A stretch of DNA of 64,000 bases from contig JAKLGH010000001.1 of NCBI GenBank assembly GCA_022710775.1, positions 5,824 to 69,823 on the forward strand, written 5' to 3'. This document shows, piece after piece, positions 13,160 through 43,858 of this stretch. Position numbers and translations under genes: made by a program. Position 1 is the first letter of the stretch. Each line of letters starts with the position of its first letter. Under the pieces are notes generated by a model, which was not told the DNA's origin, searched no databases, and worked only from the letters and a program-made list of their open reading frames with translations. This stretch comes from Patescibacteria group bacterium (GTDB lineage: Bacteria > Patescibacteriota > Minisyncoccia > Minisyncoccales > UBA5738).

Positions 13160-14341
13160 TTATGTTCCGCAAGTCAAATGAGGAGCCTGGGTACCTTTCA
13201 ACCACATTGTGCCGGTGTAAGGGCCAGTGCCTTCAAACTTATCAACCAAGACGCCAAAATCGATTTCGTCATCAGTTGACAAATCGATGGTCTTGTCAAG
13301 CAAATGATAATCGCAATCAACAGGATCGCCAGCGACGCCGTATTTCTTGAACGGGTCGTAAGGAGCGTAAACACCATCGGTATTAATCTTGGCCTTGTAA
13401 TGGACATTCCAAGATGTGGAAGTAGGCGTCAAATCACGATCGCCCATTTGCATATCGTCCTGGGCAACATTGATTGCCAAGCGAGTGTTGCCGACATTCC
13501 TGATCGTCGGTCTACCGTCACCAAGCACGAAATCTTCATTGCCGGGAGCAACCACCCAATTATTCAAGGTAACCGCACCGTAAGCAACGTTGGAAAAATC
13601 GGTCTGGAACGCAGTTCCGGGATTGTAGGTGAAATAATTCACTAACGCATCGCTGGTAGCATTGGTTTTGCTCTGCGCCCAAACGTCAACCTTATATTCG
13701 CCGGAAGGATCTTCGTAGGAAAGATTCTTGTCGCAGCAATATACATACGCAACATCCTTTTTGATCCAACCATCGTTGGAACAAATTGTATCAAAGGTTT
13801 CGCCGTTCGCAAACGTGGGAAGCGTGCCGGTATTTTGGTTGCGAACTTTGTTGCAGAATAAATCCAAAGATGCATTTTTGTTCGCAAGGTGGTCATCGCC
13901 AGCAATCTTTATCATTGTGCACTCCGAACCAACCCTAGTGCTGCAACCCTGGCGGTCAGCGGGATGGTTAGGTCCAAGGGCAATATCAGGATAATAAACA
14001 TCACCATAAACGGCGTTGATATCAGTTAAGGACTGATCGTAAATCACGCCGCAGATGGAAATAACTTTGTTAACATTATGTTGCATTGACGGATCAAATT
14101 GAGCGTTTGCAATAGCCGGATAATCATCCTTGGCAAGCCCGGAAGTACCTAAAGCAGCCGACCACGGACCGTTCATTTCCCATTTGGCTTTCACGATGGG
14201 CGCAACGCCGCCGGTGCCTTTGGTCAAGCCGGTGCCAACCGTGCCAGAACCGATAACTACGGTTTGAGCTGTAGCAATAGCCGGACCAGCGGTCATAACG
14301 GCCAAAGCTACGAGCAAACAGATAGAAATAACTTTCTTCAT
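13160..14341 (-). CDS. Secreted Cys-containing protein, paralog A (unknown family)
   Basis: I place the start at the internal MKKVISICLLVALAVMTAGPAIATAQ (ATG = complement of 14339-14341), because that gives a canonical signal peptide. It shares many blocks with 15356..16642. Confidence 0.75.
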   Translation of the reverse strand: MKKVISICLLVALAVMTAGPAIATAQTVVIGSGTVGTGLTKGTGGVAPIVKAKWEMNGPWSAALGTSGLAKDDYPAIANAQFDPSMQHNVNKVISICGVIYDQSLTDINAVYGDVYYPDIALGPNHPADRQGCSTRVGSECTMIKIAGDDHLANKNASLDLFCNKVRNQNTGTLPTFANGETFDTICSNDGWIKKDVAYVYCCDKNLSYEDPSGEYKVDVWAQSKTNATSDALVNYFTYNPGTAFQTDFSNVAYGAVTLNNWVVAPGNEDFVLGDGRPTIRNVGNTRLAINVAQDDMQMGDRDLTPTSTSWNVHYKAKINTDGVYAPYDPFKKYGVAGDPVDCDYHLLDKTIDLSTDDEIDFGVLVDKFEGTGPYTGTMWLKGTQAPHLTCGT

Positions 14342-14502
14342 ATTTTTTTCGTTTTTTTCGGATTTTAGGAGAATCCGCAACCTTTTTATTTCTACCCGCC
14401 CGATCTTTTGCACTCTAATGATTTGTCGATAATCTGATAAGACATCAGCCGCGACAGCATACAGTGCAAAATCCCGGACGGGTCCCGGTCGACCACCTCC
14501 CG

Positions 14503-14558
14503 CAATCATTAATCATTGATCCTTAACCGTTAATCCTTGATCATTAATCATTAACAGC
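14503..14558 (+). repeat. Heptanucleotide array, TAAYC/TGATC type (8 units)
   Basis: caatcat taatcat tgatcct taaccgt taatcct tgatcat taatcat taacagc. Confidence 0.8.
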
Positions 14559-14694
14559 AAGGGATTGAATTTTGATTGGCGGGCCTTCTTTATTAAATTT
14601 CGGCGGCATGGCTTCGACGGCCTGTTTCGACGGCTTTCAATAAAGTGCGGGTCGCGGCTTTCCTCCCGGGAAACGCGATCCAAACTTTATTGGG

Positions 14695-14874
14695 TGAACA
14701 TTGAACGATGAACCTTGAACTTTGAACGATGAACATTGACGATGAACATTGACGATGAACCTTGAACTTTGAACTTTGAACCTTGAACGATGAACCTTGA
14801 ACTTTGAACTTTGAACGATGAACATTGAACTTTGAACATTGAACGATGAACATTGAACGATGAACATTGAACTT
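14695..14874 (+). repeat. Heptanucleotide tandem array TGAACNN (26 units)
   Basis: tgaacat tgaacga tgaacct tgaactt ... The variable dinucleotide is only AT, GA, CT or TT, and two units are 6-mers (tgacga). The array ends 3 nt from the stop codon of the four-helix-bundle gene. Confidence 0.95.
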
Positions 14875-14877
14875 TTA

Positions 14878-15249
14878 TTATTGTTTTGCTAAGAAATTTG
14901 TAAAACCTTTTAATCGTTTCGCGAGACTGGCAGCGGCTTCCAGAACTTTACCTTGATGGGCCTTGCTGATCAAATTTTCGTCGAGCGCGCAATCCAGGCC
15001 GGCGACTACCTCGTCTAATGAGCAATGAGCCCGGTTGATATAAACGCGGCGTTCTTTATCGGTGCTTTTATTGGCGCTTTCGGCGATATTAAGTATTATC
15101 GAGAGCGATGCCCTTCTAAGCTGATCGGTTAACCCAAACCTTTCTTCTTTTGGGAACAAATTCGCGGTTTCATAAATTATGGACCTGAATTTTAACGCAT
15201 CTTTATAAATATCCCAATTCCTGAATTTAAATCCAAGATCATCAATCAT
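14878..15249 (-). CDS. Four-helix-bundle protein (23S rRNA intervening-sequence protein / Avd-like family, TIGR02436-type)
   Basis: 123 aa. The sequence [80 protein letters not shown] fits the family pattern ([27 protein letters not shown]...). Confidence 0.8.
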   Translation of the reverse strand: [123 protein letters not shown]

Positions 15250-15250
15250 A

Positions 15251-15358
15251 GTTCAAGGTTTATTTTTTTGTTCATCAGCCATAGTTCATAGTTTAATGTT
15301 TATTGTTGTCTGTTCATCAGCCATAGTTCATAGTTTAATGTTCATTGTTTATTGTTCA
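15251..15358 (-). repeat. Inverted-orientation heptad region (TGAAC cores on the minus strand) containing a 31-bp direct repeat
   Basis: GTTCA (plus strand) occurs at 15251, 15270, 15284, 15312, 15326, 15340 and 15354. From 15270 onward the spacings are 14 or 28 nt; 15251 is 19 nt from the next core and out of phase. GTTCATCAGCCATAGTTCATAGTTTAATGTT occurs twice (15270-15300 and 15312-15342; period 42 = 6 heptads). Confidence 0.8.
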
Positions 15359-16642
15359 CTCATTGGAGCATTGGTAATGATCGGTTCCGGTGGCGCTTAG
15401 CGTAAGCGTACCGCTGTATTCGCTGGTCAGGGCGTCGGGGTACTTAAAGACCGTTACGCCCAGCTCCACCGCTTCGCTGGTCGAAAGATCGATCTCTCCG
15501 GGCAAGGCGGCTGACTCATTTGGCCAATAATACGTCCAGGGATTGTTACCCACGGCGTAGCGCGCGTGATAACGGATATTATAGCGGCCATCGGTTTTGC
15601 CCAGACCCATATCGTTTTGCTCGATCGAAACCCGGACGCGGGTATTGCCAAGGTTGCGGATATAAGCGGCGCCCAAGGTTTGCTTGCCGTCTTTACCATA
15701 ATATTGCGCCGTTTTATCCAGATTGGCCGCAACCGTACCGTAATTTACGCTGTTAAAATCAGCCTGGACCGCGGTAATGGGCAGGTATTCGACATTGCTT
15801 AACAGCAGGTTGGAAAAGATCCCGGCGCTGTTCTGGGCAATGACGGAAGCGCGGTAAATGCCGGAAATATCATCGTAAGCCAGGGATTGGCCGCAGCAAT
15901 ACACAGCAGCTGTTTGCTTTTCCAATTCGGCGCAAACCGCGTCGTAATTATAGCGTTCGCCTTCGGTTCCGGTGTCGCCAAAAACCGGCAAACTGGCATT
16001 ATCGTTTTTAATCTTTTGGCAAAATAATTCCAAGCCATTTGAAGCTTCCAAGGGTTTCATTTGGCAGATCGGCGAAACGGCCTGGCCGCAGCCTTGGCGC
16101 TTTTTTGCGTCGTTGGGGGCGAAAGCCGAGTTGCCGGGATATGAAAACTGGCTGTAAACTCCGAAGCTGTCATTTGGACCGGCACCGGGCCGCACCGCGC
16201 CGCAGATCTGAAAATCCGCGGAAACATCCAAGGCTCCGCTGGGCAAAAACTGGGCCAAAGGATCGGCTGAAGCGTCGGTTCCGTTATTCAGCATGGCCCA
16301 AGCCGCCATTACCGTGGGATTTGGGTTTAAAATGTCCGCTTCGCCGCTCGGGGCGGCGCCAGAAGGCGCGCCGTTGGATGAGCCGGCAGGTTCTAGGGCT
16401 GGCTGGGTTTCCCCTGCCGGGGTTATACCCGGATCGCTGACCGGATCGGTAGACTGGATTTTGCCGGTTTCCTCGGTTGAAGCGGCTGTGCCGTCATCGG
16501 TGGTGGTGGCTTCCTCAATAGAATCAGCCACCGGATCGGTGGAAGTGGCATTTTCTTCCTGGTTTTCCGCAACTAAAACCACCGGGCCAAGAATTCCCGC
16601 TAACAAAACCGCCGCCAGTAATAACGCGATAGGTCTTTGCAT
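15356..16642 (-). CDS. Secreted Cys-containing protein, paralog B (same family as 13160..14341)
   Basis: 428 aa with the signal peptide MQRPIALLLAAVLLAGILGPVVLVA and an S/T/E/P-rich linker containing QEENATST. Shared blocks include IRNLGNTRVRVSIEQNDMGLG / IRNVGNTRLAINVAQDDMQMG, VYCCGQSLAYDDISGIY / VYCCDKNLSYEDPSGEY and IDLSTSEAVELGV / IDLSTDDEIDFGV. Confidence 0.8.
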   Translation of the reverse strand: MQRPIALLLAAVLLAGILGPVVLVAENQEENATSTDPVADSIEEATTTDDGTAASTEETGKIQSTDPVSDPGITPAGETQPALEPAGSSNGAPSGAAPSGEADILNPNPTVMAAWAMLNNGTDASADPLAQFLPSGALDVSADFQICGAVRPGAGPNDSFGVYSQFSYPGNSAFAPNDAKKRQGCGQAVSPICQMKPLEASNGLELFCQKIKNDNASLPVFGDTGTEGERYNYDAVCAELEKQTAAVYCCGQSLAYDDISGIYRASVIAQNSAGIFSNLLLSNVEYLPITAVQADFNSVNYGTVAANLDKTAQYYGKDGKQTLGAAYIRNLGNTRVRVSIEQNDMGLGKTDGRYNIRYHARYAVGNNPWTYYWPNESAALPGEIDLSTSEAVELGVTVFKYPDALTSEYSGTLTLSATGTDHYQCSNE

Positions 16643-16766: not shown

Positions 16767-16976
16767 TGAACTTTGAACGATGAACGTTGAACGTTAACTA
16801 ATGAACCTTGAACGTTGAACTTTGAACGATGAACGTTGAACGTTAACTAATGAACCTTGAACGATGAACCTTGAACGTTGAACGTTGAACTTTGAACGTT
16901 AACTAATGAACCTTGAACGTTGAACTTTGAACGATGAACCTTGAACGTTGAACTTTGAACGTTAACATTTGGACTT
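16767..16976 (+). repeat. Heptanucleotide tandem array TGAACNN (30 units) with TAACTAA punctuation and a 49-bp super-repeat
   Basis: Units are tgaac + tt/ga/gt/ct. TAACTAA falls at units 5, 12 and 20, and TAACATT at unit 29. Units 1-7 are nearly identical to units 8-14. Confidence 0.95.
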
Positions 16977-17220
16977 TTTAAAAAAATGGAGTCCAAGTCC
17001 AACTTCCCCAATGTGAAAGACGGATTTGCACTCCATTATAATTTGACGCTTGATGGCAGAATAGTTCGTATTCAATTTCACGCGTCCATTTGCCCTCTCC
17101 GCAAATGGATTTTAATCATTTAAAACCCTGACTGTATTCTGATAGTATACGTTTCCCGAGCCGTGTCAAGCTTTTGACTGAAAAATTCTAGCAGTAAAGC
17201 GGACGCGCGGTCAATAGAGG

Positions 17221-17240
17221 TTATCCACAGGTTATCAACA
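17221..17240. promoter_or_regulatory. Two tandem DnaA-box-like 9-mers
   Basis: TTATCCACA (perfect consensus, 17221-17229), then GG, then TTATCAACA (one mismatch, 17232-17240). Confidence 0.4.
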
Positions 17241-17295: not shown

Positions 17296-17425
17296 TAATC
17301 GCTAATCGTTAACTTTTAATCCTTAATCATTGATTGTTAACCTTTAACCATTGATTGTTAACATTTAATCATTGATCCTTGATCGTTAACCTTTAACCAT
17401 TGATGATTAACAATTAATCCTTTAA
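17296..17425 (+). repeat. Heptanucleotide array, TAAYC/TGATY type (about 18 units)
   Basis: taatcgt taacttt taatcct taatcat tgattgt taacctt taaccat tgattgt taacatt taatcat tgatcct tgatcgt taacctt taaccat tgatgat taacaat taatcct. Confidence 0.9.
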
Positions 17426-17563
17426 CGACGAGTGCGGGTATTTGGCGAGGATTGGCCTCAAAAAGACCGGAGGCCTAACCTCTCAAATTCCCAATACCGA
17501 ATTCATACTTTCCCAATATTCAACAACCCCGGCCTGAAGGCCGGGGCTTGCGACCCGGTTAAG

Positions 17564-18187
17564 TCAAGGAAAAGCGATTTTTTTTACCTGGTTTTTTAGA
17601 AAATCTTTAATTTCCTCGAAATCAATTTGGCCGCCGCTCTTAAAATTTATCGGCTCCATTACCAGATCATCAAAAAAAACCAGGCTTTTTAAAACCAGAT
17701 TTTCATCCAGCCCGGGAAGTTTTTTTGATAACGCGGACAAAATATCCTTAAGGGGCGTCATTTTCAAAATGTAATACAGGTCAATATAATCTTTGTTGGT
17801 TCCCCGGCCGGTAATGGCCGATAGCTTCATACAGGCAATATCTTCAATCGAAGCTATATTTAGATAAGGCTCGCTGATCAAGCTATTAACCAATTCATAC
17901 GGATAAAAGAAAAAGCTTAATTTAAGGCTATCATCGATAAAAACAGTAAGCGTTCCGGCTTCTTCCTGGGCTTTGATAATTTTATGGCCGGCAAATGCTT
18001 TCGCGGTTTGCTCGAAAACCGCCGAAGTATTAATTTCGGTTTGGGAAAAAAAATCAAAGTCAACGCTATCGCGATGGCCTATCTGCAAAGCAAGGCCGGT
18101 GCCGCCGGCCAGGTAGAATTGATCCTTGAATACATTTAAAAGCGGAAGGATGGCGCTTCTTTTTTCATCTAAAATTTCGTAATGCAT
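17564..18187 (-). CDS. Nucleotidyltransferase AbiEii/AbiGii-type toxin family protein
   Basis: 207 aa. The N-terminal pattern FYLAGGTGLALQIGHRDSVDFDFFS matches the family signature as I recall it (LAGGTALAL..GHR.S.DLDFF). Confidence 0.7.
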   Translation of the reverse strand: MHYEILDEKRSAILPLLNVFKDQFYLAGGTGLALQIGHRDSVDFDFFSQTEINTSAVFEQTAKAFAGHKIIKAQEEAGTLTVFIDDSLKLSFFFYPYELVNSLISEPYLNIASIEDIACMKLSAITGRGTNKDYIDLYYILKMTPLKDILSALSKKLPGLDENLVLKSLVFFDDLVMEPINFKSGGQIDFEEIKDFLKNQVKKIAFP

Positions 18188-25336: not shown

Positions 25337-25390
25337 TTCTTACTCTTCTTACTCTTCTTACTCTTCTTACTCTTCTTACTCTTCTTACTT
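25337..25390. repeat. 9-bp tandem repeat TTCTTACTC x6 in the 5' region of the 618-aa gene
   Basis: Six consecutive copies (the last is TTCTTACTT), 55-105 nt upstream of the start codon at 25283. Confidence 0.95.
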
Positions 25391-40431: not shown

Positions 40432-40565
40432 GCATTCACTGAATAATTTTCAATTTTAATTCAATAAATGATCAATGCGGCAATTTTCAAATAAAACGCA
40501 TGTTTGCCCGTTTTATAGAAACATTGAAAATTAATTGAAAATTGATTATTGCCAATTGACAATTA

Positions 40566-40901
40566 CGAAGCGAACTCGTGTCGGCTGGGAGGGATGGATT
40601 CGGACTTACTCACCATTCCCCTAGTGCTTAAACAAACTTCATCTTCTACTGCTCGCCCTGAGTGAGCGAAGCGATCGAAGGGTGGGCTGGGAGGGATGGA
40701 TTCGGACTTACTCACCATTCCCCTAGTGCTTAGACAAACTTCATCTTCTACTGCTCGCCCTGAGTGAGCGAAGCGATCGAAGGGTGGGCTGGGAGGGATG
40801 GATTCGGACTTACTCACCATTCCCCTAGTGCTTAGACAAACTTCATCTTCTACTGCTCGCCCTGAGTGAGCGAAGCGATCGAAGGGTGGGCTGGGAGGGA
40901 T
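40566..40901. repeat. 102-bp tandem repeat, about 3.3 copies, whose last copy is the 3' end of tRNA-Tyr
   Basis: GGCTGGGAGGGAT recurs at 40583, 40685, 40787 and 40889 (exact period 102). Copies are nearly identical, with one A/G difference. Each unit carries the tRNA segment ATCCCTCCCAGCCCACCC (minus strand). Confidence 0.95.
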
Positions 40902-43144: not shown

Positions 43145-43858
43145 CTACCATCCCTTGGTTTCCAGGGCTATCCGCGCCGTTTCCTCTTCGGCTTCCTGCT
43201 TGGACGTTCCTCCGCCTTTGGCAATAAGCTCCGGTCCGATATAGACGCCGACCAAGAATTGCTTGTTATGATCGGGCCCCTTTTCTTCCAGCACCCGATA
43301 GGTCGGCGTTATTTTCATTTTTTCCTGGGCGACTTCCTGAAAGCGCGATTTTGAATCTTTGTAAAGCTTTTTCTCGATAATCTCGGGTAATTCGCGGATC
43401 AAACTTTCATAGATGAACTGCCGGCAAGCTTCATATCCGGAATCCAGATATAAGCTTCCGATAAATGCTTCATAGGTGTTCGCCAGGATATACTGCCTTG
43501 ATTTGCCTTCTTCTTTCGACTCGCCCTTCGACAGAAGAAGAAAATCGCTGAATCCTAGTTTATAAGCCACAGAGGAAATCATTTTCGTGTTAACCAGCGC
43601 CGCTCTCCAGCTGGTAAGCTCCCCTTCAGGCTTGCCCGGATACTTACGGTAAAGATATTCAGTGGCTACCAATTCCAGAACCGCATCCCCTAAAAATTCC
43701 AGCCGTTCGTTATTGCCCAGGCCGATCTGCGGATTTTCGTTCAGATATGAGCGGTGGATAAAAGCCTGCGTCAACAGATTTTTATCTTTAAAAGCGATCT
43801 TCAGCTTCTGTTCCAGCGCCGTAAAGTCTTTGGACGCATTTTTTTCATTATTATTCAT
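43145..43858 (-). CDS. rnc: Ribonuclease III
   Basis: I place the start at [10 protein letters not shown] (complement of 43856-43858). Signature [21 protein letters not shown] and a C-terminal dsRBD ([10 protein letters not shown]). It overlaps the nusB stop by 8 nt. Confidence 0.9.

Follow-up and report, generated by a model that had tools for sequence, protein, structure and literature searches.

Two heptad repeat arrays beside secreted-protein genes of a Minisyncoccales genome: probable gene-less members of a hairpin class that carries PF05635 genes

The two arrays of TRATC-type heptads in the window (the whole stretch of 64,000 nucleotides that was analysed) are probably gene-less members of a class of heptad hairpins whose full form carries a gene of the PF05635 family, and therefore not dedicated control sites of the neighbouring secreted-protein genes. 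This assignment is based on relatives of the organism, in which the same alphabet of units is used for the arms around PF05635 genes and in a hairpin of 23S rRNA. Members of this class, found in Patescibacteria, are made of degenerate 7-nt units – a 5-nt core and two variable bases each – and the full form has two inverted arms of such units around the PF05635 gene.

The window is G000:C1:5824–69823 of a 1.16-Mb genome in 33 contigs (G000), and was compared with relatives in the same family, including MAGs labelled Minisyncoccales and Candidatus Paceibacterota. Its secreted-protein genes, paralogs A and B, adjoin a surface-fibre cluster, and the genes flanking array 2 on both sides are all on the minus strand. 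The solved structure nearest to the PF05635 protein of the window is 2gsc (E 1.6e-10). The features of the locus are listed in Table 1. Other repeats in the window include a REP-type hairpin of about 40 nt just after AbiEii (17520–17563), which is found at 85–100% identity at at least ten sites in the genome; a 102-bp unit repeated 3.1 times at 99% identity (40583–40901, TRF), preceded by AATTGAAAATT-type heptads at 40523–40564; and, in the region of the TasA-like cluster, a perfect 9-bp repeat, TTCTTACTC, in 5.9 copies (25337–25389, TRF).

Table 1. Features of the heptad array locus, with positions in the window
Feature	Position	Strand	Remarks
Secreted paralog A	13160–14341	-	
Conserved leader of paralog A	14342–14497	-	Ends in motif 1 (GGTCGACCGGGAC, sense strand)
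Slot-1 hairpin enclosing array 1	14498–14586	-	Closing stem CCCGCAATCA / TGATTGGCGGG (predicted fold)
TRATC heptad array 1, 8 units	14503–14558	+	z 6.5; absent in G225
Conserved non-coding framework: motif 2, motif 3, hairpin	14587–14693	-	Between array 1 and TGAAC arm
Spacer, 136 bp			Between array 1 and TGAAC array 14695–14872
TGAAC heptad array, 3' arm of four-helix-bundle cassette	14695–14872	+	z 11.0; 28-bp higher-order period
Four-helix-bundle gene, PF05635 (23S rRNA intervening-sequence protein)	14878–15249	-	Pfam E 1.3e-23
Degenerate GTTCA array (TGAAC on minus strand), 5' arm of cassette	15246–15358	+	z 6.3
Paralog B	15356–16642	-	
Solo TGAAC array, 28 units	16767–16963	+	z 11.6; 49-bp higher-order period; absent in G225
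Spacer, 332 bp			Between solo TGAAC array and TRATC array 2
TRATC heptad array 2, 18 units	17296–17425	+	z 8.3; T-R-A-H-C-N-T on + strand; 49-bp higher-order period
AbiEii gene	17564–18187	-	
RNase III gene rnc	43160–43816	-	TIGR02191, 241.6 bits, above cut-off; G000:C1:48983–49639

The number of heptads in the original prediction was confirmed: there are 18 in phase plus a partial unit in array 2, and 8 in array 1. Identity between positions seven bases apart (lag 7) is 0.63 in array 2, compared to 0.31 ± 0.04 in shuffled sequences (z 8.3), and 0.69 in array 1, compared to 0.29 ± 0.06 (z 6.5), with the observed value reached by none of 2000 dinucleotide shuffles. Generic AT-rich low complexity, the possibility raised with the prediction, is rejected by these shuffles. 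At lag 14 the identity is as high as at lag 7 in both TRATC arrays, and the remaining lags are at background. The arrays were detected independently by TRF, with higher-order periods of 21, 28 and 49 bp. The 49-bp period, equal to seven units, is common to both arrays upstream of B (16767–16954 and 17308–17422), and the cassette arm has a 28-bp period.

The consensus needs revision. T-R-A-W-Y-N-T, as first proposed, fits only 9 of the 18 units of array 2 and 5 of the 8 units of array 1, because TAACC units have a C at position 4. T-R-A-H-Y-N-T fits 14 in-phase units of array 2 and 6 of array 1; this pattern has 311 occurrences in the 64-kb window, so that about 0.6 would be expected per 130 nt. 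T-R-A-H-C-N-T is a better consensus than T-R-A-W-Y-N-T. The short palindromes said to form at many of the junctions between units are present, but not many: GTTAAC is found four times in array 2 and not in array 1, TGATCA only once, in array 1, and ATTAAT once in array 2 and twice in array 1. The shorter TTAA is frequent, with 12 occurrences in array 2 and 5 in array 1.

TRATC arrays were first described at two sites, but there are five in this genome. Besides arrays 1 and 2, these are an array in one orientation immediately 5' of a nifS-like gene (C1:107171–107249) and two true two-arm hairpins (C32:16945–17015 and C32:22250–22330), one 5' of a ychF-like gene and the other between convergent genes. 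Three-unit strings are common to arrays at different loci. Genome-wide, arrays with a lag of 7 outnumber two- to threefold those with lags of 4, 5, 8, 10 and 11, none of which is a multiple of 3. Gene-less heptad hairpins with other cores are also present, with GGTTAGG/CCCTAAC at C19:148–320 (-73 kcal/mol, on a 735-bp contig) and AATTTCC/GAAAATT at C28:11148–11325.

About 20 TRATC sites were collected from the genomes of the family. Two-arm hairpins with short loops account for five of them (L006, L007, L017, L019, L020), and the remainder are single arrays immediately after stop codons, between the genes of operons or between tRNA genes. Accompaniment of the arrays by secreted-protein paralogs, as originally described, holds at this locus; elsewhere, copies adjoin nifS-like, ychF-like, ribosomal-protein, tRNA and rRNA genes. 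Runs of the TRATC alphabet are polar – 18 of 35 end in TAAC followed by A, G or T, which in the hairpin copies is the end facing the loop. In genome G273 there are perfect (TGATCAT)n repeats at the ends of contigs (the end of C5, L003, and C7:1–56). A pattern of four TRAHYNT units was tried as a counter of the family over 401 genomes of the order, 157 of which matched, and was rejected as too permissive, because most matches had other cores (TGATTTT, TGAATTT, TGACTTT, TAATTCT) and a reversed-pattern control matched too.

This genome has four PF05635 genes, and inverted heptad-like arms flank each of them, with a different core in every case (TGAAC, AGCAAG, TTAAG and TTCGAA). The arms of the cassette in the window, at 14695–14872 and 15246–15358, pair far above the composition control. 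Among 31 cassettes from this genome, the family and more distant CPR MAGs, arm pairing exceeded the composition control in 24 (p 0.001), and the number of 6-mers shared between one flank and the reverse complement of the opposite flank exceeded the cross-cassette 95th percentile in 12 of 26. There was no preference for the sense strand, as judged by G-U pairs, in the arm pairing of the 31 cassettes (16 vs 15), which fits inverted repeats at the DNA level as well as it does RNA.

The alphabet of arrays 1 and 2 is found as the inverted arms of PF05635 genes in three loci (L001, L053 and L057). In L001, from genome G124, a PF05635 gene has TAATCNT arrays on one side and an inverted GATTA array on the other, in the region upstream of A that is orthologous to the one in the window. 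In L053 and L057, the latter from a Saccharibacteria MAG, TAATC and GATTA arms surround PF05635 genes whose products are 55–61% identical to that of the window. The same clade of genes is also found with TGAAC arms (in G000 and G182), TGACNAT arms and GAGAATG arms. Orthologues of the window gene are in the same slot in G182 (73% identity) and G124 (59–60%). Orthologous cassettes in this one slot thus differ in the alphabet of both arms, TAATC/GATTA in one case and TGAAC/GTTCA in the other, while the proteins are 59–73% identical; judging from these sequences, both arms of a cassette change alphabet in concert. TRATC differs from TGAAC at core positions 2 and 4. The TRATC arrays, originally described as a second family, are not a separate kind of object: TRATC is the arm alphabet of the same clade of four-helix-bundle genes in relatives.

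Copies of the TRATC alphabet are also found with no gene. One of these, L023, is at the orthologous site upstream of A, and in genome G299 the DNA upstream of A carries TRATC and GATTA arrays without a gene. In genome G156, a site with the TRATC alphabet is inside a 23S rRNA gene (Rfam LSU, 2312 bits). There, a GATTA array (L049 2885–2945) forms the 3' side of an extension of about 60 nt to a variable 23S helix, with the 5' side pairing to it via G-U pairs, and the hairpin has a predicted fold of -36.9 kcal/mol on the rRNA strand, compared to -20.4 kcal/mol on the antisense strand. In the 23S rRNA of G000 (C30:1935–4911), the same helix is plain (C30:2213–2303), with no heptad extension. The arrays of the window are intergenic, not inside a helix of 23S or 16S rRNA.

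The arrays appear to be younger than the genes they accompany. Paralogs A and B are about 32% identical, and the gene order p323-A-B is found in most of the family genomes that carry these genes, with a TasA-like gene past B where the fetched stretch extends that far. Because this order is conserved in most family genomes carrying both, the A-B duplication is old, and so the arrays would be later additions. Genome G225, of the same genus, encodes both A and B, and has none of the four arrays and no four-helix-bundle gene. The intergenic DNA of the two genomes can be aligned, in blocks that are 84% and 93% identical. The leader of A is 84% identical over 140 nt, including identical runs of 37 and 48 bases. 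This homology upstream of A runs at 84% to GGTCCCGGTCGACC and resumes beyond the array-1 stretch, where about 45 nt with a short plain hairpin in G225 correspond to about 115 nt with array 1 in G000. The 332-bp spacer upstream of B is native, with blocks 93% and 73% identical to G225, in which the solo TGAAC array is missing. Array 2 starts exactly where homology to G225 ends, at the left edge of a G000-specific stretch that also holds the REP-type hairpin and the AbiE pair. The possibility that array 2 is part of the AbiE toxin-antitoxin module was rejected, as the AbiEii homologues in the family do not adjoin TRATC arrays.

From these alignments, the arrays would have been added after the divergence of G000 and G225, or lost in G225. 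Neither a cassette nor arrays are found beside A in G225, G322 and G079. A cassette is beside A, separating it from B, in G000 and G182, and in G124 the contig stops a short way beyond the cassette and does not reach a B gene. Arrays 1 and 2 are in native spacers that are not homologous to each other – a hairpin slot in the leader of A, and the edge of an insertion upstream of the promoter region of B. As originally claimed, the order of the TRATC and TGAAC arrays differs between the two loci, with the same orientation. The accompanying claim, of arrays built or inserted independently rather than of a segmental duplication of the loci, is supported by the age of the paralog pair, the absence of the arrays in G225 and the non-homologous native spacers. 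Metagenomes were scanned for alleles differing in number of units; a scan with exact flanks found none, and the matches of another were limited to a G225-like contig and one attributable to chance.

The region upstream of A has a common framework in eight genomes: the leader, motif 1, a variable slot, motifs 2 and 3 with a hairpin, and a second variable slot, in which the cassettes sit. The part of the framework between the two slots is homologous in 7 relatives at 73–86%. The content of the first slot varies. In G000 and G124 it is occupied by TRATC/TAATC arrays, whereas G182, G299 and G243 have AAATGCA heptads there, closed by a perfect stem of 10 bp. G225 and G333 have a short plain hairpin, and G322 has 65 nt without an array. 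Where it is readable in relatives, this slot is a hairpin, either filled by an array or a plain stem. The consensus fold of the framework has two hairpins with seven compensatory pairs, and its pairing is 84% on the A-sense strand (with 16 G-U pairs) and 80% on the other strand (with 7 G-U pairs), modest evidence in that the structure was derived from the same sequences on which it is scored. Neither the arrays nor the spacers nor the conserved leader gave a credible match in Rfam. With its three invariant motifs and two hairpins, the framework upstream of A (14342–14497 and 14587–14693) is a candidate cis-regulatory leader RNA. Array 1 resembles an expanded hairpin tip within this structured leader, as the G156 array does in rRNA.

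Both TRATC arrays of the window are in a single orientation, with no separate inverted partner, and there are closing stems at both sites. Array 2 is predicted to fold on itself at -30.8 kcal/mol on the minus strand and -27.8 kcal/mol on the plus strand (z -5.8 and -5.9). For array 1, the fold is -19.6 kcal/mol on the strand of A transcription, compared to -8.9 kcal/mol on the other. The solo TGAAC array folds (z -6.6), and the cassette arm at 14695–14872 does not fold on itself (z +0.95). A specific mirror order of units, as in a collapsed two-arm hairpin, was considered and rejected: shuffles of the unit order fold equally well, so folding comes from the near-palindromic alphabet and not from an arm-to-arm design.

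The two arrays upstream of B differ in their position relative to predicted signals. Promoters of B are predicted on the minus strand at 17214–17185 and 17169–17142, and there is a terminator-like hairpin after AbiEii at 17482–17470. The solo TGAAC array lies between these promoters and the start codon of B, a position that would probably place it in the B leader. Array 2 is upstream of the predicted B promoters and downstream of the terminator-like site, and may thus be in a poorly transcribed gap.

If the arrays are gene-less members of the hairpin class, they would have colonised, or grown out of, two intergenic sites near the resident cassette in the G000 lineage, and then lengthened by duplication of blocks of several units, as indicated by the higher-order periods. 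The near-palindromic TRATC core (TGATCA, TTAA) makes an array in a single orientation self-complementary in many registers, and as a result such an array can form a long imperfect hairpin with no separate partner arm. A transcribed array 1 would form an extended stem, which could be cut by the double-strand-specific RNase III. This role in RNA is plausible for array 1, by analogy with rRNA intervening sequences and the hmw1A leader of Haemophilus influenzae. It is doubtful for array 2, which may only be a passenger at the DNA level. Transcription, RNase III cleavage, an effect on expression and the mode by which copies spread are all steps that we infer.

Several other explanations can be weighed against this one. 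It is unlikely that the arrays are neutral satellites – products of slippage or unequal crossover at AT-rich hairpins, with no functional or historical tie to the cassettes and with an alphabet that reflects mutational preference. Periods of 21, 28 and 49 bp do indicate local block duplication, no design is detectable in the order of units, and the perfect repeats of G273 resemble ordinary microsatellite growth. Most TRATC sites in the family are also far from any PF05635 gene, with only one site family-wide directly adjoining such a gene, and the counts of TRATC sites and PF05635 genes in 15 family genomes, which are not independent, are not significantly correlated (rho 0.34, p 0.21). Against neutral satellites speak the recurrence of the alphabet as paired inverted arms around three PF05635 genes that are related to each other and include one from a Saccharibacteria MAG, the recurrent polarity of the runs, the specific enrichment of lag-7 arrays over other lags, and the three-unit strings common to different loci. 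Even less probable is a set of tandem binding sites for a DNA- or RNA-binding protein, either the four-helix-bundle protein or another repeat-binding regulator, that controls A and B. Units with a conserved 5-nt core and two free bases are what multi-site protein targets look like, TRATC-type arrays are upstream of the A orthologue in G000, G124, G182 and G299, and array 2 begins 13 nt upstream of a conserved palindrome containing TTGACA, with an extended -10 element. Yet A and B are kept without an array in G225, G322 and G079, and the conserved leader is kept as well in G225 and G322; array and start codon are separated by anything between about 40 and 240 nt, and G182 differs in where the array stands relative to the conserved motifs; and a period of 7 bp does not keep in phase with the DNA helix. 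The same arrays also turn up next to unrelated genes, in the gaps between convergent genes or between tRNA genes, and within 23S rRNA.

Contingency loci, in which a change in the number of units shifts the expression of a surface or secreted protein, are known from hmw1A of H. influenzae, and we consider this very improbable here. The heptanucleotide (ATCTTTC)n in the 5' UTR of hmw1A is transcribed with the leader and folds into a long hairpin that RNase III processes, and the length of the repeat tunes expression (PMC12721329), a precedent that joins a heptamer repeat, a leader hairpin and RNase III. The heptamers of the window are likewise 7-nt tandem repeats upstream of secreted-protein genes, beside a surface-fibre cluster, and array 1 and the solo TGAAC array are comparably placed, probably in 5' leaders. 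In contrast to the identical, phase-variable hmw1A units, which pair with a separate G-rich arm, the window units are self-complementary and degenerate, differing in both core and variable bases; at a lag-7 identity of 0.63–0.69, slippage would be strongly lowered relative to perfect repeats. Array 2, furthermore, is outside the predicted B transcript. As for an origin of replication, a perfect DnaA box and one with a single mismatch (17221–17240) are 56 nt from the 130-bp tract of array 2, which is 26% G+C and contains GATC, and the tract could be read as the AT-rich unwinding element. This reading is extremely unlikely and was rejected: there is no minimum of cumulative GC skew, which is flat to weakly positive and then falls steadily, the minus-strand genes on both sides show no strand switch, the sequence resembling the DnaA boxes is kept in G225 in the absence of an array, and the same arrays are found at four further sites in the genome.

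The class of hairpins to which we assign arrays 1 and 2 resembles several known systems in part. Small bacterial genomes commonly contain tandem repeats of seven bases, for which we know of no accepted explanation. The STRR heptanucleotide repeats of cyanobacteria, reportedly described by Mazel and colleagues in 1990, are said to be intergenic tandem heptamers with several sequence families per genome and no established function, as here; they belong to another phylum and are said to have other sequences. REP and BIME elements are short intergenic palindromes tied to the RAYT transposase, a nuclease. Like the heptad arrays, they are scattered at the ends of genes and in operon spacers and are tied to one small gene family; they differ in being unit hairpins of 20–40 nt and not periodic arrays. 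We know of no catalytic activity in PF05635 proteins, and of no function for this large family.

The intervening sequences (IVS) of 23S rRNA occur in ORF-bearing forms, as in Coxiella burnetii and Leptospira with an S23p/PF05635 ORF, and in short ORF-less forms (PMC4990558; PMC11270868). Both short ORF-less insertions and PF05635 ORFs have been catalogued in the rRNA genes of CPR bacteria (PMC11270868). IVS and heptad hairpins have in common that they are extra stem-loops at the tip of an existing helix, with a full form that has a PF05635 gene in the loop and short forms with no ORF, and that their distribution among close relatives is patchy. The 23S helix of G156 is extended by the very heptad alphabet seen here, and G000 encodes an RNase III. 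The arrays of the window differ from IVS in being located in mRNA leaders or intergenic DNA and in having a palindromic core instead of a partner arm. Their stems are also made of degenerate 7-nt units, a feature not mentioned in the IVS papers that were searched. Full-text searches of the literature yielded no paper that connects heptad arrays with PF05635 genes or with intervening sequences.

A more speculative extension, which we regard as fairly unlikely, is that heptad arrays and PF05635 genes form a gene-and-repeat partnership like that of RAYT and REP. An oligomeric protein would recognise nucleic acid with a 7-nt period (a 5-nt core and two free bases), and would promote its copying, its spread and its concerted rewriting. 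The TRATC arrays would then be satellites seeded in trans by a cassette lineage that switched from TAATC, still at the orthologous site in G124, to TGAAC. Arrays would preferentially extend hairpins that already exist in RNA or DNA, growing at their tips, including those in rRNA helices and mRNA leaders.

The arrays have practical consequences, as they break short-read assemblies (contigs of G273 end in them), and the many short open frames within them confuse gene callers. This locus combines a resident cassette with gene-less arrays of two alphabets and with a conserved leader whose hairpin is variable. It is thus a comparative system for selfish insertions versus RNA-processing signals, for the concerted change of arm alphabets, and for the effect of such arrays on secreted-protein genes.
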